Part shown: positions 7,486 to 50,718 of the stretch, in pieces
Layout of the letters: each line of letters begins with the position of its first letter
How positions within the stretch are numbered: position 1 is the first letter of the stretch
DNA from: Patescibacteria group bacterium
GTDB lineage: Bacteria > Patescibacteriota > Minisyncoccia > Phycocordibacterales > JACOZG01
Direction of reading: 5' to 3'
Length of the DNA stretch: 64,000 nucleotides
NCBI GenBank assembly: GCA_034658935.1
Contig: JAYEGE010000010.1
Location: 3,903-67,902, forward strand
Made by a program: the position numbers and the translations under genes
The notes under the pieces: model-generated
Database searches by the model: none
The model's input: the letters and a program-made list of their open reading frames with translations, nothing else
Told to the model about the DNA's origin: nothing

Positions 7486-8997
7486 GTGATTATGGCGTCT
7501 CGATATGTTCTTGGTATCGCGCTCGGTTTTTTCAGTGGGGTTATTTTGGCTACCTGGTGGGGTGGCATTGATTGGGCCCTAGCTGGTTTCCTGGTCTTGG
7601 TATCTCTGGTGTTACTCGCTACTCGTTACTTGGTCAGCGATAGGCCGCGGCTCTTTCTCTGTTTAGCATTGATATTAATTGGTGTAGCGCTCGGCGCAGG
7701 CCGTCTATGGTTAAATTTCGATGACACCTATCTGAAATTGGCCTCGCAGGCAGACCAGAAGGTGCAATTAGAGGGGGTAGTGGTGGAGGAACCGGACCAA
7801 CGAGATGATTATACTCGTTTGATTGTCCGCCTAAAGGACGAAGATTTTAAAATCTTAATCACTGCCCCACTCTACCCAACCTATCGTTATGGTGATGAGC
7901 TGGCGCTCACTGGTAAGCTGCGCCGCCCAGAGAATTTTACCGGTGACGCTGGGCGAGAATTCGATTACGTTAATTACTTGGCTAAGGATGATATTCGTTA
8001 TCAACTCTACCAACCAGGGGTAACTCTTCTGGCCCGCGACCAAGGTAATTGGTTGAAGGGCGGCTTACTTAAAATAAAGGGCGCTTTTCTGGGGCGAGTT
8101 AATTTAATCCTCCCTGAGCCGGAAAGCTCGCTCTTGGCTGGCCTACTCTTGGGCACTAAACAATCTCTTGGTAGTGAGTGGCTAGAGCGTTTCCAAATAG
8201 CTGGTGTTTCGCACATTATTGTCCTCTCTGGTTATAACGTTACAATCATTGCCGACAACCTTATTAAGTTCTTTGCTTTTATTCCCGCCTTACCCCGAGC
8301 GGCCGGTTGGTCGCTTGGTGGGTTATCCATAATTCTCTTTGCCATTATGACTGGCGCCGGGCCCACTGTGCTTCGCGCTTCTCTGATGGCGCTTATTGCT
8401 CTCTTTGGTCGAGCAACGGGGCGGGTTTACGATGCTAGTCTGGCTCTCCTCATTGCCGCTTTAATGATGGTGCTCATCAACCCCCAGATTCTGGTTTACG
8501 ATATCGGCTTCCAACTCTCTTTCTTGGCCACTCTCGGTTTAATTTATCTTTTGCCGGCTTTGGAACGTAGTTTTTCTTGGTTGGCCCCAAGAAAGGTTAT
8601 GAAAATTATGCGGACTTGGTGGGCCTTAGTCCGAGAGGGGATTCGTTCTATTGCTGTCTCTACTATTGCCGCTCAGATTGCTGTCCTGCCCTGGCTGCTC
8701 TATAAGATGGGAATCCTTTCTTTCGTTGCTTTGCCGGCCAATCTCCTCATCCTTGCTTCTATTCCCTTAACTATGTTCTTTGGTTTATTCGCTGGTTTAC
8801 TTGCTTTCATCTCCACCTGGTTGGCCTGGCCCTTTGCCCTCCTGGCCCACGCCTTTCTCTCCTACCAATTATTAGTCGTCCAATTCCTTTCTGACATTCC
8901 CCTCGCCGCCATCAACATCCCTCTCTTCCCTTGGTGGGCGGCTGTTTTGGCCTATGTCCTGCTTGGTTATTGGATCGCTAGACCGAAATTGCCCTAG
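7486..8997 (+). CDS. comEC: ComEC/Rec2 competence protein, N-terminal part (DUF4131 plus competence membrane domain)
   Basis: A multi-TM protein with GVSHIIVLSGYNV (ComEC competence-domain motif). It ends at a stop 20 nt before the separate MBL-domain ORF, which is in a different frame. Confidence 0.75.
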   Translation: MIMASRYVLGIALGFFSGVILATWWGGIDWALAGFLVLVSLVLLATRYLVSDRPRLFLCLALILIGVALGAGRLWLNFDDTYLKLASQADQKVQLEGVVVEEPDQRDDYTRLIVRLKDEDFKILITAPLYPTYRYGDELALTGKLRRPENFTGDAGREFDYVNYLAKDDIRYQLYQPGVTLLARDQGNWLKGGLLKIKGAFLGRVNLILPEPESSLLAGLLLGTKQSLGSEWLERFQIAGVSHIIVLSGYNVTIIADNLIKFFAFIPALPRAAGWSLGGLSIILFAIMTGAGPTVLRASLMALIALFGRATGRVYDASLALLIAALMMVLINPQILVYDIGFQLSFLATLGLIYLLPALERSFSWLAPRKVMKIMRTWWALVREGIRSIAVSTIAAQIAVLPWLLYKMGILSFVALPANLLILASIPLTMFFGLFAGLLAFISTWLAWPFALLAHAFLSYQLLVVQFLSDIPLAAINIPLFPWWAAVLAYVLLGYWIARPKLP

Positions 8998-9017: not shown

Positions 9018-9875
9018 ATGTCGCGATGCTGGAAGATTGCTTGGGTGGGGGTCGCAGTTTTATTGATCGGGAATATTTTGGTTTGGAGTGCTGTGGCGCG
9101 GGAAGAGCGTGGGGGAGTGCTGCAGGTAGCCTTCCTTGATGTTGGCCAAGGTGATGCTATTTATATTGAAGCACCCAATGGTAATCAAGTGTTGATAGAT
9201 GGCGGCCCCGGCAAAGCTGTCTTACGTCAATTGCCACAAGTGATGCCTTTCTACGATAAGTCTATCGACCTACTTATCGCCACCCATCCCGATGCCGACC
9301 ATATATCTGGTCTGGTATCGGTATTGGAGCGCTATCAGGTCGATTATTTCATGGAGCCCGGTGTGGAAAGCGAGACGGGAGTTTACCGAGCCTTGCAAGA
9401 AGCCGTTCAAGAAGAAGGATTAGAATCAGTTCTGGCTAGACGGGGGCTGAGAGTTAACTTAGATCCCGAGCGGAACGTCTACTTAGATATTCTATTTCCT
9501 GATCGCGATCCTAAAGGTTGGAAGAGCAATGATGCTTCTATCATTACTAAGCTGAGTTACGGCCGACACTCTTTCTTATTAACCGGGGACGCGCCTAAGA
9601 AGATGGAGCAATACGTGAGCGAGCTTAATGCCGCTGGCTTGGCGGCCACCGTACTCAAGGTCGGCCACCATGGTTCTCAGACTTCCTCTGATCAAGAATT
9701 CGTATCTGCTGTCAGTCCAGATTACGCGGTGATTTCTGTTAACGCAAATAATCGTTACGGCCACCCACATCAGGTAGTGCTCGATACCTTAGACCAACTT
9801 AAAATAAAAATTTTAGATACCACCGAGGGCAATATCCAATTTGAGACGGACGGAATTAATTTGGAACTTATTTGA
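9018..9875 (+). CDS. comEC: ComEC C-terminal metallo-beta-lactamase domain, encoded as a separate ORF with its own signal-anchor helix
   Basis: N-terminal TM helix, then DVGQGDAIYIE and HPDADHISGL (the MBL HxHxDH motif) and VGHHGS. It is homologous to the C-terminal domain of full-length ComEC. Confidence 0.75.
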   Translation: MSRCWKIAWVGVAVLLIGNILVWSAVAREERGGVLQVAFLDVGQGDAIYIEAPNGNQVLIDGGPGKAVLRQLPQVMPFYDKSIDLLIATHPDADHISGLVSVLERYQVDYFMEPGVESETGVYRALQEAVQEEGLESVLARRGLRVNLDPERNVYLDILFPDRDPKGWKSNDASIITKLSYGRHSFLLTGDAPKKMEQYVSELNAAGLAATVLKVGHHGSQTSSDQEFVSAVSPDYAVISVNANNRYGHPHQVVLDTLDQLKIKILDTTEGNIQFETDGINLELI

Positions 9876-22963: not shown

Positions 22964-23497
22964 ATGTCTATTACCAAAGAAAAATTAGATAAAAGTTTGT
23001 CGCAACTGAAGTCGGAACTTAATGAGACCAACTTGTTGGCTTTGCCTCGTCTGACTAAAATCGTAGTCAACACTGGTCTGGGCCGCAATAGGGATAAAAA
23101 GCATCTAGAATTAGTTACTGATAGGCTCGCAAAGATCACTGGACAAAAAGTATCTACTCGCGGAGCCAAGAAGTCAGTTGCTTCCTTTAAGGTTCGCGAA
23201 GGAGATATCATCGGGGCGGCCGTGACGTTGCGGGGCGGTCAGATGTGGGGTTTTCTCGACAAATTGCTCAATGTGGCTATTCCAAGGATTCGGGACTTTC
23301 GTGGTTTTGAGATCAAGAGCATTGATGATGTCGGCAATTTATCGATTGGTATTAAAGAGCATACGATTTTCCCAGAGACCGCTGATGAGGACTTGAAAGA
23401 TGTTTTTGGGATGACGATTACTCTGGCCACCACTGCCGGAGACAAGAAGGTTGCTCAGGCCTTTTTCCGGGCTATGGGTTTTCCTTTTAAGAAATAA
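22964..23497 (+). CDS. rplE: 50S ribosomal protein L5
   Basis: L5 family; operon order. Confidence 0.93.
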   Translation: MSITKEKLDKSLSQLKSELNETNLLALPRLTKIVVNTGLGRNRDKKHLELVTDRLAKITGQKVSTRGAKKSVASFKVREGDIIGAAVTLRGGQMWGFLDKLLNVAIPRIRDFRGFEIKSIDDVGNLSIGIKEHTIFPETADEDLKDVFGMTITLATTAGDKKVAQAFFRAMGFPFKK

Positions 23498-23587: not shown

Positions 23588-25162
23588 GTGAAAAAGACTA
23601 TTTTAATAAGTTTAGTTGTTTTGTTGGCGGTAGCAGTATTGTTTGGCTCTATAAATGTGGTCACGGCCCAGGTTATTGGAGGTAAAATCGGTTTTTTAGA
23701 CCAAATAATGAGAAGTTTGGGCTGGGTAATTGGAGACCAAACTGCTCAGGTGGTTAAGAAGGATGACTCTGTACCCAGCTCTAGCGGTGTCGCGCCTGCC
23801 AGTGACGGTGGCGGGGTGGGGGTTACTGTCTCTATCCCTGTCAGCTCTGCATCTATTGGCGGCGGTATAGGCTCGGCTTCTGCGGTTACTTCCGTCTCTA
23901 GTAGCCCTGTCCCATCTGGGGGCAATACTGGCTCTGGTGGAGTCACGGCTAACTCCACCAGCGATGACAACGTTCTCACAAATAATACTGTTGAGGGGAC
24001 ACTCGATGGCAGTGACCATGATTTATCGTGGTATAACCCTAAGACCAAGACTTGGGAGTCTACCTCTAGCCAGAAAGGCGTATTCAAATTTGACGGCAGT
24101 ACGGTTGGCATAGGCTCTGCGCCCACTAGTGCCAGCCTTAGTGTTGCTGCCGCTGGTGGGTCTGTCGCGATTGATGGCCGAAATACCACTGGAACTGCCT
24201 TTATTGGACATAGCGAGGAGGGCGTTGGTATACGAGGGAGTAGTAACGGTTTTTTTAATATATCAGATCCGGCGTCTATCCCATCTGTCGGGGTTTTTGG
24301 TCGGGCAAATTCTGGTGTCGGCTTGTATGGTTTCAGTAATACGGGGGTCGCCGTGAGGGTGGCAGGGGGGGAATTTGGCTTGTACCAACAAGGGTTAAGC
24401 TCGAAGAATTTTTTTGAGGGTAAAGTTGGAATCGGCACTCGAAATCCAGCTACTGAGCTAGATGTTAACGGCAGAATTAGTGTGAGTTCGGATATTGGCA
24501 CTGCCCTATCTGTTCGAGGTCAGGTGGGTATATTTGATGGTACTCAGGGTGCTGGCAAGGTGCTCACCTCTAATTCCGCGGGTTTGGCTTCTTGGCAGAT
24601 GCCCGCTGAGGCTGGCAGTGAGTTCTGGGCCGGCATAGAGGGCGACAATATTTATAATATCAATAGCGGAAATGTCTCTATCGGGGCGGCATCTCGTTCT
24701 TCGGCCAAGCTTTTTGTTACTGCTCATACTAACAACCCAGCGGTCAGAGCGGAGAATAATGGCGGTGGTACCACTCTCCAAATATTAAACGGTGACGGGG
24801 GTGTGGGAATTCAGCAGGTGGGCGGAGACAGGAATTATTTTGAGGGCGATATCGGGATTGGCGTCCAAGATCCCGCTGAACGTCTAGATCTTGGTGGTGG
24901 GAATATCAAAATGGGCCACGAAATAGTGTCTGCTTGGGGTAGTACTACGGGTGGACGTGTTATCAACGTGTTTTGCCCAGAGGACAAGTTTGTGATTGGT
25001 GGGGGTTGTGAGATAACCGATGACAGTGGCTCTACAATATCAATTTCATCTCCCATTGATCTCGCTGAGTCTGCTTCAGGATCAGGTGGCTGGTCGTGTA
25101 AATGGAGCGGTGGTAGGGGAGAAGTTGGGGTCGCCAAAGCCATCTGCGCTAATATTAGGTAA
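23588..25162 (+). CDS. Secreted or membrane-anchored Gly/Ser-rich 524-aa protein inserted in the spc operon. The C-terminus is Cys-rich (CPEDKFVIGGGCEI...WSCKW...CANIR). Start is GTG.
   Basis: N-terminal signal/anchor MKKTILISLVVLLAVAVLF, then long G/S/T-rich low-complexity sequence. No catalytic motifs. Confidence 0.6.
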   Translation: MKKTILISLVVLLAVAVLFGSINVVTAQVIGGKIGFLDQIMRSLGWVIGDQTAQVVKKDDSVPSSSGVAPASDGGGVGVTVSIPVSSASIGGGIGSASAVTSVSSSPVPSGGNTGSGGVTANSTSDDNVLTNNTVEGTLDGSDHDLSWYNPKTKTWESTSSQKGVFKFDGSTVGIGSAPTSASLSVAAAGGSVAIDGRNTTGTAFIGHSEEGVGIRGSSNGFFNISDPASIPSVGVFGRANSGVGLYGFSNTGVAVRVAGGEFGLYQQGLSSKNFFEGKVGIGTRNPATELDVNGRISVSSDIGTALSVRGQVGIFDGTQGAGKVLTSNSAGLASWQMPAEAGSEFWAGIEGDNIYNINSGNVSIGAASRSSAKLFVTAHTNNPAVRAENNGGGTTLQILNGDGGVGIQQVGGDRNYFEGDIGIGVQDPAERLDLGGGNIKMGHEIVSAWGSTTGGRVINVFCPEDKFVIGGGCEITDDSGSTISISSPIDLAESASGSGGWSCKWSGGRGEVGVAKAICANIR

Positions 25163-29455: not shown

Positions 29456-29659
29456 ATGTCTAACATGGAATTTAATCCTGACGATAAGGATTTTTATAGT
29501 GATCTGCGTCAGCGAGCTGCTGCTCCTCGAGGTGGTCTAATGGGTTGGTTTATGAGGGTGCTGGGGACCGATAGCGAAAGCAAGGCCAATGGGGTGATGC
29601 TGGCAGTGGCCGTTTTGTTTTTCCTGGCTTCCATTATTATTTTTTGGCGTTTCCTGTAA
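29456..29659 (+). CDS. Small hypothetical protein with a C-terminal transmembrane helix
   Basis: A 67-aa ORF between secY and adk. The C-terminus is MLAVAVLFFLASIIIFW. Possibly leaderless. Confidence 0.35.
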   Translation: MSNMEFNPDDKDFYSDLRQRAAAPRGGLMGWFMRVLGTDSESKANGVMLAVAVLFFLASIIIFWRFL

Positions 29660-29665
29660 TCAATC

Positions 29666-30259
29666 ATGACTGATCTAAAGGCCTGTGTTTTCATCGGTCG
29701 CCCTGGTAGTGGTAAGGGTACCCAATCTCAAAGTTTGATTGAGAAATTAAAAGTAACAAAACCTGTTCGGCCAATTATTTATGTAGAGACTGGGAGCCTT
29801 TTCCGTGAGTTTATGAAAGGCGATTCTTATACCCAGCGATTAGTCAGGGAAGCTCTAGAGAAAGGGGAGAGGTTGCAGGATTTCTTGGCGATCTGGAATT
29901 GGACCAATAAGTTAATAAAGGAGATGACTGGGCAAGAGCATATAATCTTTGATGGGGCGCCTCGATCCTTACTTGAGGCACAGATAGTTAGCACTATGGC
30001 GAAGCAATACTCTCTTCCTGAACCGACTATTGTTTATATCAACGTTAGCCGTGAATGGGCCAAGGCTCGACTTTTGGCTCGCGGTCGGGTCGATGACCAT
30101 GATGAGGGAATCAATAACCGGCTTGGTTGGTTTGACCGCGATGTCGCTCCGGCGGTGACCTATTTCCGAGAGCAAAGCGACTTCCGCTTTCTCGATATTA
30201 ATGGCGAGCAACCAATTGAACGAGTTAGTGCCGATATCTGGAGTGGACTGGGATTATGA
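29666..30259 (+). CDS. adk: Adenylate kinase
   Basis: Contains GRPGSGKGTQ (P-loop) and lid-region Arg residues. Confidence 0.9.
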   Translation: MTDLKACVFIGRPGSGKGTQSQSLIEKLKVTKPVRPIIYVETGSLFREFMKGDSYTQRLVREALEKGERLQDFLAIWNWTNKLIKEMTGQEHIIFDGAPRSLLEAQIVSTMAKQYSLPEPTIVYINVSREWAKARLLARGRVDDHDEGINNRLGWFDRDVAPAVTYFREQSDFRFLDINGEQPIERVSADIWSGLGL

Positions 30260-31020
30260 TTAGCCTGAAGACTCCTAAACAAATAAATATCCTGCGAGAG
30301 GGTGGCCGTCGTCTGGCGACAATTTTGCAAACCGTGGGCGAGCGGGTTAAACCTGGGGTAACTCCACTTGAACTTGACGCTATGGCCCGTGACTTAATCA
30401 AGCAAGGTGGAGATGAGCCCTCCTTCCTAAATTATCGACCGGCTGGAGCGTCTGGGCCATACCCGGCCGCTTTATGTGTATCGGTCAACGAATCTATTGT
30501 CCATGGCATTCCTGATAAGCGGTCCCTGCAGGAGGGGGATATTGTTGGCATTGACCTCGGGCTTAAGCATAAGGGTCTCTATACTGATATGGCAATGACT
30601 GTGTCGGTGGGGGAGCTTAAACCAGAGCTCAAGCGACTCCTCGCTCATACCAAGGAGGGGTTGAGGGCGGGTATTGCTCAAAGCAAAGTGGGCAATCATT
30701 TGGGTGATATCGGGGCAGCCATTGAGGCCGTTGCCGAGAAACATGGCTATGGCGTGGTCCGAGAGCTAGCTGGCCACGGGGTGGGCCTAAAGGTCCATGA
30801 GGAGCCAGAGGTGCCCAATTATGGCCAAGTTGGGACGGGTCTTAAGCTCAAGGCTGGTATAGTTATTGCTATTGAGCCGATGTTCAATCTTGGGGCGGCC
30901 GATGTGGTTTTTCACGACGATGGCTATACGGTTACCACCAAGGATAAATTACCTTCGGCTCATTTCGAACACACAGTGTTGGTGACTGAGAGTGGTGGTG
31001 AGGTGCTGACTCGCTCCTGA
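30256..31020 (+). CDS. map: Methionine aminopeptidase type I
   Basis: Pita-bread fold metal ligands (D..D..H..E..E); 254 aa; follows adk. Confidence 0.93.
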   Translation: MISLKTPKQINILREGGRRLATILQTVGERVKPGVTPLELDAMARDLIKQGGDEPSFLNYRPAGASGPYPAALCVSVNESIVHGIPDKRSLQEGDIVGIDLGLKHKGLYTDMAMTVSVGELKPELKRLLAHTKEGLRAGIAQSKVGNHLGDIGAAIEAVAEKHGYGVVRELAGHGVGLKVHEEPEVPNYGQVGTGLKLKAGIVIAIEPMFNLGAADVVFHDDGYTVTTKDKLPSAHFEHTVLVTESGGEVLTRS

Positions 31021-31188
31021 TCTGTTAAACTATTAGTAACCCCATGTCTAATTTTGAAACAATGCCGGGTGGCGACACCAAACTCAGCCCTGAGCAAGCT
31101 CTGGCCGCTCTCGATGAGCAGACTCGCTTGATTGTGGCCGAGGAGGCTAGTCATCCTCTCCACGAAACACTAGAGATTTTGCAGCAGC

Positions 31189-31509
31189 TTGATTCTCCCC
31201 AATAATCTTATGTTTGATAAACAAGAATTAACTGAGTTGGTGATTACCAATCTCGGCCAACGGGAATTGACCACAGTCGAGCAGGGGGGACTTGTCCAGC
31301 GCTTAGTGAGCAATAGCTCGCGCCGGATTAATTTGGCGGTTTTGAATAAATTATCGGAGGCAGAACATAAGGAATTATTGCAATTGGCAGAAGAGGGCAA
31401 TCGAGAAAAGGTGAGGACTTTTTTACAAGGCAAAATATCTAACCTCAATCAATTAATAAAGCAAACTGTCATTGGTACTGTTGAGGAGTTTAAAGGTTTA
31501 ACGCGCTAA
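31189..31509 (+). CDS. Hypothetical protein (106 aa) upstream of the HerA-like ATPase
   Basis: An ORF only; no recognisable motifs. The start may be the internal MFDKQEL. Confidence 0.35.
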   Translation: MILPNNLMFDKQELTELVITNLGQRELTTVEQGGLVQRLVSNSSRRINLAVLNKLSEAEHKELLQLAEEGNREKVRTFLQGKISNLNQLIKQTVIGTVEEFKGLTR

Positions 31510-31523
31510 GTTATAATTAATTA

Positions 31524-34301
31524 ATGGAACAAATCGGCTTCGGTGAGGGTCCGAAGTTTAAGACTCCCACTGAGGAGCTAGCTTTTTTGCGTCAGCAAGT
31601 GGCTGAGAAGGAAAAGTCGCTGGCTGAGTCGGCGCCGGAAGGCCAGCGGCAAGAAATTGCTCCAGAGCAGATGGTGGCGGAGCAAGTCAGTGCTTACCGG
31701 GAATTTAAGCCGCACGAGGTGTTGACGCCTGGACATGAGCTCAAGCCCCATCAGGTAGAGGAGATCGTGCTAGAGCTCTCGCCTGAGCTCCATGATGATC
31801 AGATGTCCGAGTTATTGACTGTGCTACAAGAGAAGGGGGTGCGTAATGCTTTGACTGTAGTCGAGCAAATGAAGAATCCTCACCTGGAGGATGATTTCCA
31901 TCGTTTTCTAATTGCCTATTTGCGCTCGGGTCAAACCGTGAGCGGCTTGAAGGAGAAGGCCCCTCTGCAACAGGCTCTCCGGCTGGTTCTCTATGAGATC
32001 GCTCTTCCTGAGCCAGGAGACAAGGACGAGGGTCGACCATTGAGGGAATTACTCTCAGCGATGGAACAATTTTATGCTGGGATATTGGCCCCCATGGACC
32101 AGACCAAGCCAGGCGAGCCAAATTATCTCACTTTGGAGATTGCTAACCCTAATCAGAGCGGGGAGTTTATCTTCTACGCCGGAGTACCGGAGGGTCTGCG
32201 GACAGTTTTCGAGAAACAAGTTGTAGCCATATTTCCTCATGCCACCTTGCGTGAGGCGAAGAATGACTATAACGTCTTTAATGTTAGCGGCATCTCAGTT
32301 GGGGCCGAGGCGACACTTTCCGAGAATTTCATTTACCCACTTAAGACTTATGACCAATTTGATCTTGACCCTCTGAATATTATCCTCAATAGCTTCTCTA
32401 AAATTGACCGCGAAGGTGAGGGGGCGGCGATCCAGTTTCTTATCGGCCCGGGGGATAAGCGTAAGGAGAAAGATTATCGCCGGGCCTTGACCGAAATAGA
32501 ACAAGGGAAGTCTGTGACTGAGGCAATGTCTGGCCACGATATCGCCGGCGCTGTTATTAAGGGTCTCGATGTCATCTTGGGCGGTAGTAAACCTAAGGAA
32601 CCAGAACAGCCAGAGGTTCCCAAGCAGATTGATCAAGTCGCCGCCGAGCATGTTAGGCAAAAAATAGCTGCCCCATTAACCAATTGTCAGATCAGGGTAA
32701 TTGCCTCCTCCCCCAACCGCTCTGGGGCGGAAGCCATTCTCCAAGATCTAGAGGCGGCTTTTGCTCAATTCCAGAGTGCTCAAGGGAATAACTTGTGTTT
32801 TCAACCAAAAGATAAGAAGGCCCTGAAGCGCCTACTCCACGACTTTACTTTTCGGCTCTATCATCCTCGCCGCGCCCTGGCTCTTAATATCCGCGAGTTA
32901 ACTACGGTGATGCATTGGCCGGCGACAGCGATCGGGGCGGCGACGCAATTAAAGCAGGCCAAGGCCAGCACAGCGGCGGCGCCTCTCGATCTACCTAAGG
33001 AGGGGGTCCTATTGGGGCTTAATAAGCATCAGCAATTAGACACTGAGGTGAGGGTCTTGCCAGAAGATAGATTGCGCCATTTCTACACCATCGGCCAGAC
33101 AGGCACAGGTAAGTCGGCTCTCTTGAAGAATATGATTATTCAAGATATCCAAAATGGTGATGGAGTTTGCATGATAGATCCACATGGCCAAGATATTCAG
33201 GATGTATTAGCGGCTATCCCCAAGGAGCGTCAAGAAGACTTAATCTATTTTGACCCTGGCTACACCACTAGGCCGATGGCGCTCAATATGCTGGAGTATG
33301 ACCCTCGCTTCCCCGAGCAGAAGACCTTTGTTGTTAATGAGTTGCTCAGTATCTTCAATAAACTTTTCGATATGAAGGTGGCTGGCGGGCCAATGTTCGA
33401 ACAATATTTCCGCAATGCAGTATTGCTGGCAATCGAGCATCCAGATAGTGGCGGTACTTTGCTGGATGTCTCGCGTGTGTTGGCAGACAAGAAGTCCCGA
33501 GAATCCAAATTGGCTAATTGTAAAAATCCGGTTGTGGTTCAATTTTGGCGTGAGGTGGCTGAGAAGGCGGGTGGAGAATCAGCCCTGGCCAATATCGTGC
33601 CCTATGTCACCAGTAAGTTTGACGTTTTCCTTGCTAACGATATTATGCGCCCTATTATTGCCCAGGCGCGCTCCTCTTTTGATTTCCGCGAGGTGATGGA
33701 CGGGCGCAAGATTCTCCTGGTTAACCTAGCTAAAGGACGTTTAGGTGATTTAAATGCCAATTTGATTGGCTTGATCTTGGTCGGCAAGATCCTAATGGCC
33801 GCCCTTTCACGAGCCGATGCCCCGAGCGCCTCCTTAAATCCCTTTTATCTCTATATTGATGAGTTCCAAAATGTGACTACCGATTCGATCGCCACTATTC
33901 TTTCAGAGGCCAGGAAATATAAATTAGGTCTGCATATTGCCCACCAATTCATCGCCCAATTAACCGATCCTATTCGTGATGCCGTCTTTGGTAACGTTGG
34001 TTCCTTGGCTGTCTTCCGGGTGGGGAGTGACGACGCCGAGTACCTAGAGAAACAATTGGCCCCAGTCTTTAAGGCTCAAGACCTTATTAACCTGGATAAT
34101 TTCCATGCCTACTTGCGATTATTGGCTCATGGTCGGCCACTTAAACCTTTCGATATCGAAACCATCAAGCCGGCTATTCCAGACATGGAGAGTTTAGATA
34201 AATTGAAGAAGCTCTCTTATTCAAAATTCGGCCGCCCTCAGGCAGAGATCGAGGCAGAGATCAGTGCTCGGTATCAGGGCGTGACGGGGCCTGGCGCTTA
34301 G
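31524..34301 (+). CDS. HerA/FtsK/VirD4-like P-loop ATPase (DUF87/AAA_10-type) with an uncharacterised ~480-aa N-terminal region
   Basis: Walker A HFYTIGQTGTGKSALL, DPHGQD, Walker B LYIDEFQNV, and ARKYKLGLHIAHQ (the RKxGhxhhhhhQ motif shared by HerA and VirD4/TraG). Length 925 aa. Confidence 0.7.
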   Translation: MEQIGFGEGPKFKTPTEELAFLRQQVAEKEKSLAESAPEGQRQEIAPEQMVAEQVSAYREFKPHEVLTPGHELKPHQVEEIVLELSPELHDDQMSELLTVLQEKGVRNALTVVEQMKNPHLEDDFHRFLIAYLRSGQTVSGLKEKAPLQQALRLVLYEIALPEPGDKDEGRPLRELLSAMEQFYAGILAPMDQTKPGEPNYLTLEIANPNQSGEFIFYAGVPEGLRTVFEKQVVAIFPHATLREAKNDYNVFNVSGISVGAEATLSENFIYPLKTYDQFDLDPLNIILNSFSKIDREGEGAAIQFLIGPGDKRKEKDYRRALTEIEQGKSVTEAMSGHDIAGAVIKGLDVILGGSKPKEPEQPEVPKQIDQVAAEHVRQKIAAPLTNCQIRVIASSPNRSGAEAILQDLEAAFAQFQSAQGNNLCFQPKDKKALKRLLHDFTFRLYHPRRALALNIRELTTVMHWPATAIGAATQLKQAKASTAAAPLDLPKEGVLLGLNKHQQLDTEVRVLPEDRLRHFYTIGQTGTGKSALLKNMIIQDIQNGDGVCMIDPHGQDIQDVLAAIPKERQEDLIYFDPGYTTRPMALNMLEYDPRFPEQKTFVVNELLSIFNKLFDMKVAGGPMFEQYFRNAVLLAIEHPDSGGTLLDVSRVLADKKSRESKLANCKNPVVVQFWREVAEKAGGESALANIVPYVTSKFDVFLANDIMRPIIAQARSSFDFREVMDGRKILLVNLAKGRLGDLNANLIGLILVGKILMAALSRADAPSASLNPFYLYIDEFQNVTTDSIATILSEARKYKLGLHIAHQFIAQLTDPIRDAVFGNVGSLAVFRVGSDDAEYLEKQLAPVFKAQDLINLDNFHAYLRLLAHGRPLKPFDIETIKPAIPDMESLDKLKKLSYSKFGRPQAEIEAEISARYQGVTGPGA

Positions 34302-41889: not shown

Positions 41890-42579
41890 CTAGTTGTTGC
41901 GCCCGCCCCCAAGTATTTTTGCTACGAGCGCTTCGTAAATAGTGACATCACTGCTTTTCATTATCGCCTTAGAACTAAAGATATCGGAGGCGTTTTTCAG
42001 GAAATCTTTTTGAATTTCTGGATGTTCTTTGCTTTCGATAATGTGCTGGTAAGATTGAGCCAATGTTTTTCGGTTGGCGTAGTCAATTCTAAGATTACCC
42101 AAGTGGGAATGTTGTTTAAGCGCGTATACAAAGACAGTTAAGAAAACGATGTTAAGTAGATAAAGTCCGGGTTCTTTGTACCAGATAACATCAAAATCGT
42201 AGATAGTTGGTCCAAAAAATGACACCAGGATTGATGCAGAGAGTAGGATGGTGGTGCCTATACCTATTTTAAACCAAAAGCTCTGTTGGCCCTTATAATC
42301 TTTTTCTTGTTCTGCATAGGCCGAAGCAAATCTACTCAACTCCATGACTCTTAATTGCTCCTCAGTTTTGGAAATCCTTTTTTCTAGGACGTCTACTTCT
42401 GACACGAGTTTGGTGTTTTCGTCTTTTAGCCCCGCAGTTTTTTTATCCGCAGCGGTTTTTTGCTTTAGATTTTCGTCGCTGAGATTAGTAAATTGTTCTT
42501 CTAGGACGGTGATTGCCTTGTCTTTCTGGAGGCCTCTCTTTTGTTCTTCGTGATAGTCACGCTTGTAGGATCTTGTCAT
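41890..42579 (-). CDS. Hypothetical membrane protein (N-terminal coiled coil, two TM helices)
   Basis: A charged heptad-like N-terminal 110 aa, then two hydrophobic helices. No family recognised. Confidence 0.45.
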   Translation of the reverse strand: MTRSYKRDYHEEQKRGLQKDKAITVLEEQFTNLSDENLKQKTAADKKTAGLKDENTKLVSEVDVLEKRISKTEEQLRVMELSRFASAYAEQEKDYKGQQSFWFKIGIGTTILLSASILVSFFGPTIYDFDVIWYKEPGLYLLNIVFLTVFVYALKQHSHLGNLRIDYANRKTLAQSYQHIIESKEHPEIQKDFLKNASDIFSSKAIMKSSDVTIYEALVAKILGGGRNN

Positions 42580-42580
42580 G

Positions 42581-42880
42581 TTATTTTTTGTGCTGTTTGT
42601 TAAACCTCGGGGCTTCTTTGCCGATAATCCGTTTTTCTATTTGTAGGGCTTGGGGCTTGTTCTCTACCTGAGCAACCTTGAACTTAGTCCCGCCGGGGAT
42701 GTGATCTTTCTTGAACTGTAGATGGTTTGTGAGGCGCTGTTGCACGTTCCCCCTACCTGCCACTCCGGTATACAGGTTTTCCCCGGCATTGTTAGTAAGC
42801 TCGTATACGATCGTTTTGTTTTTGGGCACTTTTGCGACGTTGGTTTTGTCGAACTTTTGTGGGCGGTTAAATTTGATCAT
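42581..42880 (-). CDS. Small GIY-YIG (URI-domain, YhbQ/COG2827-like) nuclease-domain protein
   Basis: IVYELTNNAGENLYTGVAGRGNVQQRLTNH matches the GIY-x10-YIG-x8-R-x2-H pattern, plus a downstream conserved Glu region. Confidence 0.5.
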   Translation of the reverse strand: MIKFNRPQKFDKTNVAKVPKNKTIVYELTNNAGENLYTGVAGRGNVQQRLTNHLQFKKDHIPGGTKFKVAQVENKPQALQIEKRIIGKEAPRFNKQHKK

Positions 42881-42961
42881 AGTGTGGATAAGTTATTTAC
42901 ATTACTAATATTGTTTGCTAACATTCAAAATATAGCATATAGAAAATAAATAGCAAACTTA

Positions 42962-43618
42962 ATGCTTACTAAGAAACAAAAAAGCGTTTTTGACTACATT
43001 AAGCGGTATGCGGAGAAGAATGAATATGCTCCCTCCCTCGAAGAGATCCAGGGGCATTTTAAGCTCGCCTCTGTCTCAACGGCCTTCTATTACATCAATA
43101 GGTTGGTGGAGGGCGGGTACCTAAAGCGAGAGGCCCATCAGGCTAGGTCGATAAGTGTCCAGCCAGATGAGGTGATTAAGTCAGCCCTTCCAAAACAGAT
43201 AAAATCCTTTTCTGTTCCAGTGCTTGGTTCGGCCAATGCTGGCGAGGCAGTCTTACGTGCAGAAGAAAATATTGAAGGGCATCTCAGGGTCTCTCGTCGT
43301 ATATTAAGTGGGAAAGACGGAGTCTTCGCTCTGCGTGTTAAGGGTGATTCAATGAACAGGGCAAAAATAGATGGTAAAAATCTTGAAGATGACGATTTCG
43401 TGCTCATTGATTCGGAGTATAAAAGTCCCAGAGATGGTGACTATGTCTTGTCTGTTATAGAAGGCCATGCCAATCTCAAGAAATTTAAGCGAGACGGTAA
43501 AACTGGTCAAGTTACGCTTATTTCTGAGTCGACGAATACCAAACACAAACCGATTTTTATTTCTGGCGACGATGATTTTATGATAAATGGTAAAATAATA
43601 AGTGTGGTGAAGAAATGA
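42962..43618 (+). CDS. lexA: LexA-like repressor (winged-HTH plus S24 peptidase domain)
   Basis: N-terminal LTKKQKSVFDYIKRY...SLEEI (LexA DNA-binding domain), VKGDSMN (Ser nucleophile) and NLKKFKR (Lys). Its stop overlaps the MTase start (ATGA). Confidence 0.8.
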   Translation: MLTKKQKSVFDYIKRYAEKNEYAPSLEEIQGHFKLASVSTAFYYINRLVEGGYLKREAHQARSISVQPDEVIKSALPKQIKSFSVPVLGSANAGEAVLRAEENIEGHLRVSRRILSGKDGVFALRVKGDSMNRAKIDGKNLEDDDFVLIDSEYKSPRDGDYVLSVIEGHANLKKFKRDGKTGQVTLISESTNTKHKPIFISGDDDFMINGKIISVVKK

Positions 43619-44769
43619 CTTTTATGAAGAAGAATATAACCCACAAACTCGCCGAATTATTTTCAGGTCCTGGCGGTTTATCGCTAGGTATTGTTTCTGC
43701 TGAAGCGGAAGATTTGGGGGGCAGGAAATATAGTGTAAGCTCGCTTTGGGCAAATGATATAGATGAGGATTCCTGCAATACTTATGCGAAAAATATACAT
43801 AATGGCGATAGAACCAACGTTTTATGCTCCCCAGTTGAAAAAATTGATTTTAAAAAGGTGCCAAAATTTGATGCACTCGCTTTTGGATTTCCGTGTAATG
43901 ATTTTAGTATAGTGGGAGAGCAGAAGGGTTTCGGTGGTAAGTATGGACCTTTATACACCTACGGTGTAAAAGCAATAAAGGAACACAACCCCAAATGGTT
44001 CATTGCTGAAAACGTCAGTGGCCTGCAAAGCGCAAACAATGGTGATGCTTTTGGGAAAATACTCGACGATTTAGAAAATGCGGGGAATGGATACGTACTT
44101 ACACCCCATCTATATAAATTTGAGGAGTACGGTGTTCCTCAGACGAGGCATAGAATTGTCATAGTCGGCATAAGAAAAGACCTCGGTCTTGAATTTAAGG
44201 TACCGACTCCCACTACTTTAGATGGATACGTTACGGCTAAGTCGGCCATTGAAGAACCGCCAATCTCAGAGTCTGCTCAAAACCACGAGCTTACAAAGCA
44301 GGCAAAGATTGTTGTAGAAAGGCTGAAACATATCCCTCCAGGCGAAAATGCCTGGTATGATGGTTTACCTGAACACCTAAGGCTCAACGTAAAATCTGCA
44401 CGTATGAGTCAAATTTATAAACGACTACATCCCAAGAAACCGTCATACACGATAACGGGAAGTGGCGGTGGGGGAACACATGGGTATCATTGGACAGAGA
44501 ATCGTGCCCTTACAAATAGGGAGAGGGCTCGCATTCAGACCTTTCCTGACAGTTTTATATTTGATGGCTCTAAGGAGAGTGTGCGAAAACAAATAGGCAT
44601 GGCCGTACCGGTCAGGGGGGCGAAGATTATCGCGGAGGCCGTGCTTAAAACTTTTGCGGGCGTTACTTATGAATGGATTCCACCCAGAATAACAAATGGT
44701 AACGGTCGTGATAAAAGTAATACTAAACAGACACCACTGTTTAATAAAACTGACCTACAGCCTGTTTAA
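43615..44769 (+). CDS. DNA (cytosine-5)-methyltransferase
   Basis: Motif I LFSGPGGLSLG, motif IV FGFPCNDFSIVG (PC dipeptide), motif VI ENV, and a C-terminal TRD. Confidence 0.9.
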   Translation: MTFMKKNITHKLAELFSGPGGLSLGIVSAEAEDLGGRKYSVSSLWANDIDEDSCNTYAKNIHNGDRTNVLCSPVEKIDFKKVPKFDALAFGFPCNDFSIVGEQKGFGGKYGPLYTYGVKAIKEHNPKWFIAENVSGLQSANNGDAFGKILDDLENAGNGYVLTPHLYKFEEYGVPQTRHRIVIVGIRKDLGLEFKVPTPTTLDGYVTAKSAIEEPPISESAQNHELTKQAKIVVERLKHIPPGENAWYDGLPEHLRLNVKSARMSQIYKRLHPKKPSYTITGSGGGGTHGYHWTENRALTNRERARIQTFPDSFIFDGSKESVRKQIGMAVPVRGAKIIAEAVLKTFAGVTYEWIPPRITNGNGRDKSNTKQTPLFNKTDLQPV

Positions 44770-45591
44770 AAGTTCCCGCCAACTTTTTTTATCTCGGTGA
44801 AGTCGGCCCGATTTGATGACGTATCTGTGGCCGTCGAAAGTTTGACCTGGGATAGAGGTTACTTTCTCAAGTTCATCCTTGTAACAATATCCTGCTATTT
44901 CGCACGGGATATTACCTAGATCAGGAATATCATTCTTGTATTTGTCATAGTGCGGTTGACCTGAGACAAGTTTGGTTATCTCGGACTTTGAGACTCGCAA
45001 TAAATGGTCGTCTTCTAGGGCTGGTCGACAGTATATATAAACGTCAGAGCTTCTTTCGGGTATCTCGACCTCGTTCCCGCCCAGTACGAGGTACGCACTT
45101 TTGGGCTTGGATGATTTAATGCCTACTCCTATTGAGGGTTCTACCCATTTGCTCCTTTTTAGCACTTTTGTTATATCTTGCGGAACAATGTTGGGGTGTA
45201 TATCAAAATCTAGCTCTACGCTGACGTTAAATTTCTGTTTAAAAAATTTTTGAACAGCAATCTCGCCCAACTGTCCCTTTACCCAATTTGTAACTTTTTG
45301 ACCAAATTCCCTGATTCTACTGGTGCCCCAATCAGAAGTTACATATCCTCTAAAATGTTGTGCTAACACAAAGTCCATACATCTGGCGTAGTCATCCCTA
45401 TCGAGGGCGATAGTCCTTTGGTCGTAATCTTTTCTCCATTCTTCCAGATCGGTTTTATTAAACGTAAATCTACCTCTTCCCGCTCTGGGTAGTGGAGTTA
45501 TCTCGTCCGCATTTTTGAAGTAATTCTCAAAAGTTTTCTCGTCTAGTTCGAGAAATTTCACGGCTTCTTTTTTAGTCAAGATATCTGGCAT
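44755..45591 (-). CDS. Putative restriction endonuclease with an N-terminal excisionase-type HTH (HTH_17-like)
   Basis: It is convergent with and overlaps the 3' end of the C5-MTase gene. The N-terminus LTKKEAVKFLELDEKTF...RFTFNKTDLEEWRK resembles the phage Xis/MerR-type HTH. The C-terminal domain is unassigned. Confidence 0.45.
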   Translation of the reverse strand: MPDILTKKEAVKFLELDEKTFENYFKNADEITPLPRAGRGRFTFNKTDLEEWRKDYDQRTIALDRDDYARCMDFVLAQHFRGYVTSDWGTSRIREFGQKVTNWVKGQLGEIAVQKFFKQKFNVSVELDFDIHPNIVPQDITKVLKRSKWVEPSIGVGIKSSKPKSAYLVLGGNEVEIPERSSDVYIYCRPALEDDHLLRVSKSEITKLVSGQPHYDKYKNDIPDLGNIPCEIAGYCYKDELEKVTSIPGQTFDGHRYVIKSGRLHRDKKSWRELLNRL

Positions 45592-45825
45592 AACAATACA
45601 TTTGTAATTTTCACTATGCCCGATTCCCGTCGATTTTTCAAGCTACTCTCTCGTGACGGCACAGCCTGGTCTCGCATTTGGGCGGACGCTTCGCTATCTC
45701 ACTCGCTACGCCCCGGCATATGCGGCTCCGCTCTTTCAAAACCCACGGTTTTGAATAATTTCCTCCACGGGGAACTCCCGTTCCCCGACCCCCTCCCTGG
45801 TTCGATTCCGCCCATCTCACTGCTT

Positions 45826-45926: not shown

Positions 45927-46349
45927 TGGTGGAGATGGGCGGAATCGAACCGCCGTTCAAATAGTTGTTGTAAGAGAATCTACGTGTGTAGCTAGTTTTT
46001 TGTTTTAAGCTCAGTACCTATAAAGCCAGCAAAACAATACTGAGCCGGACCTCTAAGTTTTCGGATCCTTAGCGAGATAGACTAAGGGACCTAGCTCGCG
46101 AGAATTACACTCTAGTCCGCGGCACGAGCGCCTGACGGGTAGAATGCCTACTTAAGCCTACAACACTAAAAGTGTCGGCCGGCGCTGAAAGCGCTTAGGC
46201 TAAAGCGAAAGCAGGGGTGAAGTATGGCGAAGCCACACCTCGGTCAGATGAATTGGCATTTATCTGGTTTGCCAACAGGTTTACGAGTCTTTTGGCCTCC
46301 TCGACACGCACACTTAAAACAGGACTACCTGTCTAAGCCGATCATCCCC
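45927..46349 (-). ncRNA. ssrA: tmRNA (SsrA)
   Basis: On the minus strand the 5' end is GGGGAUGAUCGGCUUAGACAGG, a shape comparable to E. coli GGGGCUGAUUCUGGAUUCGACGGG. A PK1-like CGAGGAGGCC...CUCGUAAA is present. The candidate tag ORF is ...GCU UUC GCU UUA GCC UAA (…PAFALA*). The 3' end is GGCGGUUCGAUUCCGCCCAUCUCCACCA, which is T-arm, acceptor and CCA. It lies immediately downstream of smpB. Confidence 0.75.
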
Positions 46350-46350
46350 A

Positions 46351-46794
46351 TTATTGGTTTTTCAAGGTTCGCTGGATCTCGATATCCGTCTCGCGTTTCT
46401 TGATGATACTGCGCTTGTCGCGTTTCTTCTTACCTCGGGCTATAGCTAGCTCTAGCTTCAAGCGTCGTCCTTTATTATACACAGCAAGCGGGATAATTGT
46501 CAACCCCTTCTTATCCTCAACTCCCCCTAATTGTTCCAATTCCTTTTTCGTTAGTAGTAGCCGGAGATTGCGGTCTCCCTCATGCCCCTCAGGTATGTTT
46601 TTGGCTTGGTAGGGATGGATACTCGCGCCAACTAAATAGGCTTCACCCCCACGGACAAGGACTCGAGACCCAGTCAAATTAGCTTCACCGGCGCGGAGGG
46701 ATTTCACTTCATGGCCATAGAGTTCTAGGCCCGCTTCAAAGCGCTCAAGAATTTCGTAATCAAAACTAGCCTTTTTGTTGCTTACCAGGGCCAT
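46351..46794 (-). CDS. smpB: SsrA-binding protein SmpB
   Basis: Contains FDYEILERFEAGLELYGHEVKSLR and a C-terminal basic tail. Confidence 0.95.
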   Translation of the reverse strand: MALVSNKKASFDYEILERFEAGLELYGHEVKSLRAGEANLTGSRVLVRGGEAYLVGASIHPYQAKNIPEGHEGDRNLRLLLTKKELEQLGGVEDKKGLTIIPLAVYNKGRRLKLELAIARGKKKRDKRSIIKKRETDIEIQRTLKNQ

Positions 46795-50645: not shown

Positions 50646-50718
50646 GTGCCCATAGCTCAATGGTTAGAGCGCCAAGCTTATATCTTGGTGGTTCCAGGTT
50701 CGAGTCCTGGTGGGCACA
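50646..50718 (+). tRNA. tRNA-Ile with anticodon UAU (AUA-decoding). No CCA is encoded.
   Basis: Hand-folded cloverleaf. Acceptor GTGCCCA/TGGGCAC, D-arm GCTC-AATGGTTA-GAGC, anticodon stem CCAAG/CTTGG with loop CTTATAT (U33, A37), T-arm CCAGG-TTCGAGT-CCTGG, discriminator A. Confidence 0.7.

Follow-up and report, generated by a model that had tools for sequence, protein, structure and literature searches.

Much of bacterial diversity belongs to the Patescibacteria, also called the candidate phyla radiation (CPR), and their host-dependent life is poorly understood. According to a recent survey of 3,035 Patescibacteria genomes, 2,417 have a chromosomal and mostly relaxase-less type IV secretion system (T4SS), derived from the mating-pair-formation class MPF_FATA and often located near dnaA, and a separate, true VirB4 is likewise often encoded near dnaA (Quinonero-Coronel et al. 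2025, Microb Genom, PMC12102498). The same survey reports 5,713 homologues of VirD4-type coupling proteins (type IV coupling proteins, T4CPs) in 2,918 Patescibacteria genomes, 148 of them near virB4. A 2025 review describes the Patescibacteria T4SS as the first T4SS essential for its bearer (PMC12857230). The substrate of this system and the role of the widespread 'orphan' T4CP homologues are standing questions (PMC12857230; PMC12102498). Here we describe a gene for a 925-aa ATPase, located downstream of map in a 64,000-nt stretch of DNA (contig JAYEGE010000010.1, positions 3,903-67,902, forward strand), which is referred to as the window. The encoded protein is predicted to be a soluble, two-domain ATPase of the FtsK/HerA superfamily and of coupling-protein lineage, with its motifs intact. 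We hold this identity and the two-domain architecture with high confidence. The gene and its parts, in window coordinates, are as follows.

31524 to 34301, plus strand: gene of the 925-aa ATPase (NCBI U9M92_03110, 100% match)
31524 to 31943, plus strand: helical N-terminal extension, residues 1-140, with helices in the AlphaFold2 (AF2) model; missing from the forms of ~792 aa (e.g. in Wolfebacteria)
31956 to 32933, plus strand: DUF8128 core, residues ~145-470, an alpha/beta domain with a predicted fold like that of the VirB4 N-terminal domain
32988 to 34163, plus strand: P-loop motor of the FtsK/HerA superfamily, residues ~489-880, of TrwB/VirD4/TraD type; a putative helical insertion spans ~599-703
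33093 to 33116, plus strand: Walker A, GQTGTGKS, residues 524-531; G524-K530 invariant in 26 homologues; aligns to the TrwB P-loop
33849 to 33872, plus strand: Walker B, LYIDEFQN, residues 776-783; D779-N783 invariant in 26 homologues; aligns to TrwB LFIDEL
33912 to 33947, plus strand: RKYKLGLHIAHQ, residues 797-808, the Arg/Gln sensor region common to T4CPs; aligns to TrwB GRKAGLRVVAGLQ

The sensor residues R797, K798, Y799, H807 and Q808 are also invariant in the 26 homologues, as is a DPHG motif at residues 552-555. TrwB was the best match of the ATPase in the Protein Data Bank (PDB) in the sequence search (0.005) as well as in the search with the family profile (2e-4), and DotL came next. 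Since TrwB was the best match, TraD models scored best and the motifs align with those of TrwB, the motor was assigned to the T4CP branch. Homologues carry T4CP-type names at NCBI. Among 51 family members, TrwB_AAD_bind was matched in 50, DUF87 in 48, FtsK_SpoIIIE in 46 and TraG-D_C in 45; the TrwB_AAD_bind matches were weak (best 1.1e-9) and those to FtsK_SpoIIIE (best 7.3e-5) were at the level of the P-loop. AF2 placed helices at residues 599-703, a putative all-alpha insertion where the predicted local distance difference test (pLDDT) reached only 45-75. The N-terminus is hydrophilic and helical, and a Kyte-Doolittle scan with a 19-residue window revealed no transmembrane (TM) segment outside the ATPase core, its sole peak (residues 743-761) lying inside the core. 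Judged from these sequence features, the C-terminal half belongs with the FtsK/HerA-superfamily motors of coupling-protein type, without being a canonical T4CP.

The N-terminal half belongs to a catalogued domain family. Precomputed annotations assign PF26449 (DUF8128) to the identical protein (P0001) and to all 120 homologues among the matches listed, and a Wolfebacteria member is named 'DUF8128 domain-containing protein' in UniRef. A phmmer search with residues 1-480 against 1.84 billion representatives returned 978 clusters, the full-length proteins being 790-1,120 aa long. Because the ~792-aa forms lack residues 1-145, the DUF8128 core was placed at residues ~145-470. No mention of DUF8128 was found in the literature searched. 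The AF2 model of the N-domain (pLDDT 91, pTM 0.88) is mixed alpha/beta, and in a Foldseek search of the PDB with this domain alone the top nine matches were all TrwK/VirB4 (prob 1.0, best E=1e-5, TMq 0.41-0.50). With the whole model VirB4 again ranked first (E=4e-8, ~900 columns), followed at lower ranks by T4CPs (4.6e-4) and HerA (3.9e-3); matches of the motor half were taken for ranking only and not interpreted further, because that half of the full-length model is poor. The DUF8128 domain stands where the membrane anchor of a T4CP usually is, and from its modelled fold we infer a docking domain.

In its predicted order of domains, an alpha/beta N-domain followed by an FtsK/HerA motor, the ATPase would resemble VirB4 (TrwK of R388; PDB 7o42, 7o43, 8rtd), and like VirB4 it is soluble or peripheral, but the two share only 9% identity, and the motor sequence is nearer to that of T4CPs. 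The VirB4 families PF03135 (CagE_TrbE_VirB) and PF12846 (AAA_10) were not listed for the window ATPase, nor were they among the 25 families most often matched by the 51 members. Identity as a VirB4 paralogue by sequence was rejected because hhalign against a true plasmid VirB4 aligned just the P-loop, with a probability of 1.1%.

An initial annotation of this locus, made from its sequence, had quoted the ATPase motifs correctly, had recognised the C-terminal half as a P-loop ATPase of the HerA/FtsK/VirD4 superfamily, and had described the protein as experimentally uncharacterised and located in a housekeeping operon; all of this agrees with our results. Its view of the N-terminal half as novel and without recognisable motif has to be abandoned, given the Pfam assignment, the predicted VirB4-like fold and the homology, described below, to N-domains of plasmid and phage ATPases. 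It had also named a match of this half to a well-known VirB4/TraC/TraG family as speaking against its view, and such a match exists in part, at the level of fold and profile and not of plain sequence. A HAS barrel, for which it had suggested looking, is absent from the predicted mixed alpha/beta N-domain.

The closest relatives of the two-domain protein outside the CPR are on plasmids and phages. A tblastn search of 72,556 plasmids with the ATPase matched 635 records. The best-covering matches were 'DUF87 domain-containing' proteins of 800-930 aa from Bacillus, Niallia, Clostridium and Streptomyces, which align at residues ~201-886, across both domains, with 22-23% identity and E values down to 6e-29 (example WP_229762801.1 on NZ_CP086062.1); a pairwise BLASTP comparison with a plasmid ATPase gave 5e-36 over residues 214-876. 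Although tblastn with the N-domain alone yielded no plasmid match, hhalign of the N-domains only, Paceibacteria against plasmid ATPases, gave 99.3% (E=8.5e-21, 259 columns), and because of this profile-profile match the two N-domains are considered homologous. In four plasmids the ATPase gene heads an operon and is followed by genes for a relaxase-like Replic_Relax protein (PF13814), TcpC, TcpE, VirB4 (AAA_10) and further transfer proteins; on a Streptomyces plasmid just the pair of ATPase and Replic_Relax is annotated. From this gene order, the plasmid ATPase is read as occupying the putative coupling-protein slot of a Tcp-type conjugation system of monoderms. An N-terminal TM segment is also missing from the Bacillus plasmid ATPases.

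Relatives are found as well in Bacillus and Geobacillus phages and phage-plasmids. One of them, gp156 of Bacillus phage G, matches by sequence (1e-38) and structurally matches the DUF8128 model (TMq 0.64, E=2.4e-20); another, gp32 of phage 0105phi7-2, is annotated as 'DNA helicase or translocase' and lies next to ParA/RepA genes. In phage G (L094, NC_023719.1 89194-93336) gp156 (825 aa) adjoins gp155 (549 aa), a compact VirB4-like ATPase that matches AAA_10 and P-loop_TraG; both proteins match the DUF8128 model structurally, so that this jumbo phage encodes a pair of a VirB4-like and a T4CP-like protein, with no other T4SS genes annotated nearby.

The Paceibacteria and the plasmid/phage soluble ATPases thus share the same two-domain architecture over ~670 residues, with homologous N-domains. 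Unlike the Paceibacteria gene, the plasmid genes lie on mobile elements in front of Replic_Relax, TcpC, TcpE and VirB4, and their products lack the 140-residue helical extension. The Paceibacteria protein is also far more conserved than its plasmid relatives, which are themselves uncharacterised. With TrwB, VirD4, TraD and DotL it has in common an FtsK/HerA motor in which the Walker A, Walker B and RK...Q motifs correspond, and perhaps an insertion of helices; it differs from them in having a soluble N-terminal region of 470 residues instead of an N-terminal TM anchor, in scoring far below the curated cutoffs and in having no linked relaxase or T4SS. VirD4 of pLS20 was considered as the closest characterised relative and rejected, on account of its two TM helices and of the different type of operon in which it is encoded. 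HerA helicases (HerA-NurA, the HerA-Sir2 and HerA-DUF4297 defence systems, mad8 of MADS) are members of the same superfamily, and weak DUF87/HerA matches were obtained (NCBIfam HerA model, E=0.08). However, the ATPase has a predicted alpha/beta, VirB4-like N-domain in place of a HAS barrel and no NurA, Sir2 or DUF4297 partner, and it is a core gene and not a patchy one. From FtsK/SpoIIIE it is set apart by the lack of a polytopic membrane domain and of a gamma (KOPS-binding) domain. A literature search on Parcubacteria and FtsK produced nothing of use.

More than 900 full-length homologues of the ATPase, with 55-68% identity, were found, and a scan of one genome per species detected relatives in at least 591 species-representative genomes. 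All ATPase-bearing genomes with an informative organism name are Patescibacteria of the Parcubacteria/Paceibacteria type. The protein identical to that of the window comes from a metagenome-assembled genome (MAG) named 'Patescibacteria group bacterium'; the contig of the closest homologue (P0002, 68% identity) ends too early to show the upstream genes. Neighbouring genes were counted in 83 loci, and the counts are lower bounds; most loci end at contig edges. Downstream of the ATPase gene ndk was present in at least 47 of the 83 loci (median distance 99 nt), while map was found upstream in at least 37, secY upstream in at least 29 and a gene for a beta-CASP RNase nearby in at least 34. The usual order across the lineage is secY-adk-map-[variable spacer]-ATPase-ndk. 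A second context, seen in six to seven loci of a subgroup of Paceibacteria (L056, L062, L066, L067, L073, L083, and L052), places the ATPase gene directly downstream of the division and cell wall (dcw) cluster, behind and co-oriented with lysS-(mraZ-like)-rsmH-ftsL-ftsI-murF, and RmuC follows after a few more genes. A pilM cluster and ruvX adjoin it in a third context (L010, L017, L061). Genes in these two contexts were labelled from representative sequences and not from Pfam matches. The GC content of the ATPase gene is unremarkable, and no relatives were found in IMG/VR. Given its presence in at least 591 species and its conserved position across the lineage, the ATPase appears to be a core, chromosomal and vertically inherited gene of Paceibacteria and not a cassette or insertion. 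The MAG CALRBL01 (Ca. Nomurabacteria MsH-01oct19-81) carries two copies on two contigs (L016 and L050), 56% and 53% identical to the query; these are either a true paralogue pair or the product of mixed strains in the bin.

Conservation is unevenly distributed along the protein. Mean pairwise identity among the 26 homologues was 79% for the motor half (481-880), 52% for the DUF8128 region and 47.5% for the N-terminal extension, and the short C-terminal tail (881-925) varies. In the 24 genomes with full synteny, median identity to the window protein was 71% for the motor domain; for the neighbours it was 61% for IF3, 60% for SecY, 58% for ndk, 56% for L20, 55% for S5 and 52% each for map and L15. 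The motor domain thus exceeds even SecY in conservation, which is unusual for a T4SS-type ATPase and for which the sequence offers no explanation. This degree of conservation suggests that the gene may be indispensable.

With orphan T4CPs, as presented in the survey, the ATPase shares that it is a chromosomal, T4CP-like ATPase present in nearly all genomes and almost never located by virB4 or a relaxase gene (PMC12102498). Most likely it is the Paceibacteria form of these homologues, which were counted as matches to hidden Markov models (HMMs) and would then include the DUF8128 ATPase family. The survey, in the part available, does not describe the DUF8128 domain, the missing anchor, the map-ATPase-ndk position or the extreme conservation (PMC12102498). 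The reading that we favour, by a modest measure, is that of a T4CP-lineage motor serving the chromosomal T4SS of Patescibacteria. The ATPase would form a hexameric motor, and its DUF8128 domain would dock this motor on a membrane complex, most plausibly the relaxase-less, MPF_FATA-derived T4SS encoded elsewhere in the genome. Once docked, the ATPase would recruit or pump DNA or protein needed for the host-dependent lifestyle. The closest two-domain relatives come from monoderm conjugation systems, the putative source of the Patescibacteria T4SS.

Several observations weigh against a role in the T4SS, and the link to that system, taken by itself, is put forward more tentatively than the reading as a whole. 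Replic_Relax, TcpC, TcpE and VirB4 homologues were not found within 8 kb on either side of the ATPase gene in the 83 loci, nor in the 64-kb window. The link is inferential because no T4SS gene, relaxase or membrane partner lies nearby in these loci or in the window; relaxase or mating-pair-formation genes were not seen to be linked to the ATPase, which is surrounded by housekeeping genes such as map, adk and ndk. Pfam matches of the window ATPase stayed below the cutoffs (TraG-D_C 20.5 against 22, TrwB_AAD_bind 15.9 against 20.5, T4SS-DNA_transf 13.6 against 20.1), as did the DUF87 match on its motor half. Of the NCBIfam models, those of conjugative TraD coupling proteins were the best, and even here SXT_TraD (1.4e-13) scored 50 against a cutoff of 366. 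The full-length AF2 model has a pLDDT of 40-70 in the motor half. Conservation above that of SecY is atypical for T4SS components. In the saccharibacterium Ca. S. epibionticum the T4CP homologue is dispensable, whereas other T4SS genes are essential, and exaptation of T4CP homologues 'cannot be ruled out' according to the authors of the survey (PMC12102498).

Many of the same observations would fit a T4SS-independent housekeeping translocase, a domesticated coupling ATPase acting on the cell's own or on imported nucleic acid, which we regard as possible and as less probable than a motor serving the T4SS. Candidate tasks are division-coupled clearance or segregation of DNA, as by FtsK, recombination and repair, or the processing, for nucleotide salvage, of DNA that ComEC and type IV pili have imported. 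A motor conserved beyond SecY and the ribosomal proteins argues for such a role, and so does the housekeeping character of every recurrent context (spc with ndk, dcw with RmuC, pilM/ruvX) and the lack of any T4SS gene around the ATPase in the loci and window searched. Gene neighbourhoods, however, carry little functional signal in tiny, compact genomes. The weak FtsK_SpoIIIE matches in 46 of the 51 members also point in this direction, but the ATPase has neither the membrane domain of FtsK nor its gamma domain. In the survey, T4CP homologues in 2,918 genomes against virB4 in 2,417, and the dispensable T4CP of Saccharibacteria, in which the T4SS is essential, agree with independence from the T4SS (PMC12102498). 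ComEC and RecJ are encoded in the window, which would suit DNA import; yet loss of ComEC has no effect on viability in S. epibionticum (PMC12857230), weakening the case for an essential route from DNA to nucleotides. Finally, all the closest two-domain relatives stand in conjugation or phage-plasmid contexts, which speaks against a housekeeping role.

The initial annotation had proposed something else, a cassette of two small open reading frames (ORFs) and the ATPase, inserted in the ribosomal operon in place of infA, rpmJ and the alpha operon and acting in anti-phage defence or in DNA uptake or secretion. The surrounding features are as follows.

30256 to 31020, plus strand: map, methionine aminopeptidase (Peptidase_M24 in the Logan copy), the last canonical gene of the spc operon and a conserved anchor on the upstream side of the locus
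31044 to 31205, plus strand: orf53, 53 aa from ATG, supported by the ORF list and codon usage
31189 to 31509, plus strand: orf106, 106 aa if started at TTG; the NCBI record has 99 aa, started at the ATG at 31210
31489 to 31517, plus strand: match to a sigma-70-like promoter consensus, TTTAAA-17-TATAAT, ending 7 nt 5' of the ATPase start codon
34335 to 34940, plus strand: ndk, nucleoside diphosphate kinase (PF00334, 3.5e-37), the most conserved neighbour

The genes are tightly spaced, with gaps of 23 nt between map and orf53, 14 nt between orf106 and the ATPase gene and 33 nt between the latter and ndk. All three ORFs of the proposed cassette exist, with bounds at 31044-31205, 31189 or 31210 to 31509, and 31524-34301. 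The first, given as an unannotated acidic ORF of 52 aa at 31046-31204, is indeed acidic (pI 4.2, no TM segment), though it has 53 aa and is annotated, as U9M92_03100. The second, given with 106 aa, is present and is called by NCBI with 99 aa (U9M92_03105); the ATG start is the more likely one. It is helical and matches PF18908 (DUF5663) just below threshold (E=1e-4; 23.3 bits, cutoff 23.7), a family of which no mention was found in the literature searched. Both small ORFs look coding, since their in-frame codon-usage log-odds (0.355 for orf53, 0.232 for the 99-aa form of orf106) fall with those of confident window genes (0.29 +/- 0.11) and far from off-frames (-0.37). The promoter match is weak evidence because 14 such sites were observed in the region against 6.9 +/- 2.8 expected. 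An independent Logan assembly (SRR26901924) has the identical order L5-524aa-S8-L6-L18-S5-L15-secY-67aa-adk-map-53aa-99aa-ATPase, and in the window the ATPase gene is followed by ndk and genes for a beta-CASP RNase and a SLOG protein, then by L20-L35-IF3 on the other strand.

As a functional unit the cassette is very improbable. Among ~5.8 billion protein clusters each small ORF matched only itself, and neither tblastn nor jackhmmer detected either of them in 84 related loci. In these relatives (L001-L084) the spacer between map and the ATPase gene ranges from 0 to ~7 kb and is a hotspot with unrelated ORFs of up to 2,117 aa (L043); in at least 13 loci map directly abuts the ATPase gene with a gap below 160 nt. 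As ORFans without a match in the related loci, and with map abutting the ATPase in relatives, the small ORFs are not regarded as partners of the ATPase; comparison of the sequences marks them as strain-specific orphan genes in a variable spacer, not part of the ATPase machine. The initial annotation had itself named a lack of conservation of the small ORFs with the ATPase as speaking against its module, and this is what the relatives show. It was right that none of infA, rpmJ and the alpha-operon genes lies 3' of map in the window, and mistaken in reading this as replacement by an insertion, as the secY-adk-map...ATPase-ndk order is lineage-wide.

About ten loci encode a different family of small helical proteins (~95-122 aa) directly 5' of the ATPase; this family (L001, L003, L008, L012, L015, L019, L025, L026, L028, L030) is usually preceded by a large variable ORF (397-1,645 aa) and has no convincing Pfam match. 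Membership of orf106 in this family was considered and dropped (HMM E=0.2, not significant).

For a role in defence, the tight spacing of the genes can be cited together with matches of the motor half to the PADLOC mad8 model (3.7e-12) and, weakly, to HerA models, and with a Bradyrhizobium plasmid protein whose identity of 35% is confined to the motor half and which is encoded among CHAT and TPR genes. The motor thus has cousins in defence contexts, but these lack the features that define the Paceibacteria gene. Defence genes are patchy and fast-evolving. The ATPase, in contrast, is present at a conserved position and with housekeeping-grade conservation in at least 591 species; no recurrent nuclease, NurA or Sir2-type partner was found near it in related loci, and its N-domain is predicted to adopt a VirB4-like docking fold, neither an effector nor a HAS barrel. 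A defence role is unlikely because this is a core gene, slower in its motor than SecY and without an effector partner; uptake or secretion of DNA or protein may still be the task of the ATPase alone. Still more improbable than the cassette is the chance arrival, behind map, of a conjugative element or phage-plasmid that integrated and is now decaying, a notion that the plasmid and phage relatives and the variable spacer might encourage and that conserved synteny contradicts, with the frame intact, the catalytic motifs invariant, the same position kept in dozens of species at ~55% identity, normal GC content, no integrase, relaxase or repeats and no IMG/VR match.

Some other features of the window were observed in passing. 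Inside the spc operon, between rplE (22964-23497) and rpsN/rpsH, a 524-aa ORF (23588-25162, plus strand), also present in the Logan assembly, has a signal-peptide-like N-terminus, Gly/Ser-rich repeats and no Pfam match. A 67-aa ORF between secY and adk (29456-29659, plus strand), with one C-terminal hydrophobic helix and coding-like codon usage, was matched by tblastn in just one of the 84 related loci (L024). ComEC is seemingly split into adjacent ORFs (7486-8997 and 9018-9875, plus strand), the first with DUF4131 and Competence channel domains and the second with a separate metallo-beta-lactamase domain; RecJ is encoded close by (3935-5725). A stretch of low GC content (~41890-45600, 0.40-0.44 against ~0.48) adjoins the tmRNA gene (45927-46349, minus strand), with smpB at 46351-46794 on the minus strand. 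Its ORFs, judged from their sequences alone, include a LexA-type regulator-like protein (42962-43618), a DNA methyltransferase-like protein (43615-44769) and several unknowns. As tmRNA genes are a classic site of integration, the stretch is a candidate for a small genomic island. The sole tRNA gene in the 64 kb is that of tRNA-Ile with anticodon TAT (UAU), at 50646-50718 on the plus strand.

Since the family is already catalogued (as DUF8128 in Pfam and under T4CP-type names at NCBI) and orphan T4CP homologues of Patescibacteria have been published, the gene as such is not new. We found no prior description of a domain like the VirB4 N-terminal domain replacing the membrane anchor, none of the homology that links it to soluble ATPases of coupling type in Bacillus phages and on plasmids of Bacillus and Streptomyces, and none of the fixed map-ATPase-ndk or dcw-ATPase position or of a motor more conserved than SecY. 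The analysis removes a false lead, as the three-gene cassette and its defence role are not supported, and it provides a concrete target in the largest class of the CPR: a single gene, constant in its location, whose product carries a putative VirB4-like docking domain instead of the anchor and has clear relatives in tractable Bacillus plasmids. It is conceivable, if on present evidence rather unlikely, that a coupling ATPase was captured by an ancestor of the Paceibacteria and is now an indispensable housekeeping motor in ribosomal-protein and cell-division operons, central to the episymbiotic lifestyle. The process served by such a captured motor would be the import or export of DNA or protein through a relaxase-less T4SS, or division-coupled handling of DNA. 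If this holds true, it would be the first essential, non-conjugative machine of the T4CP type.

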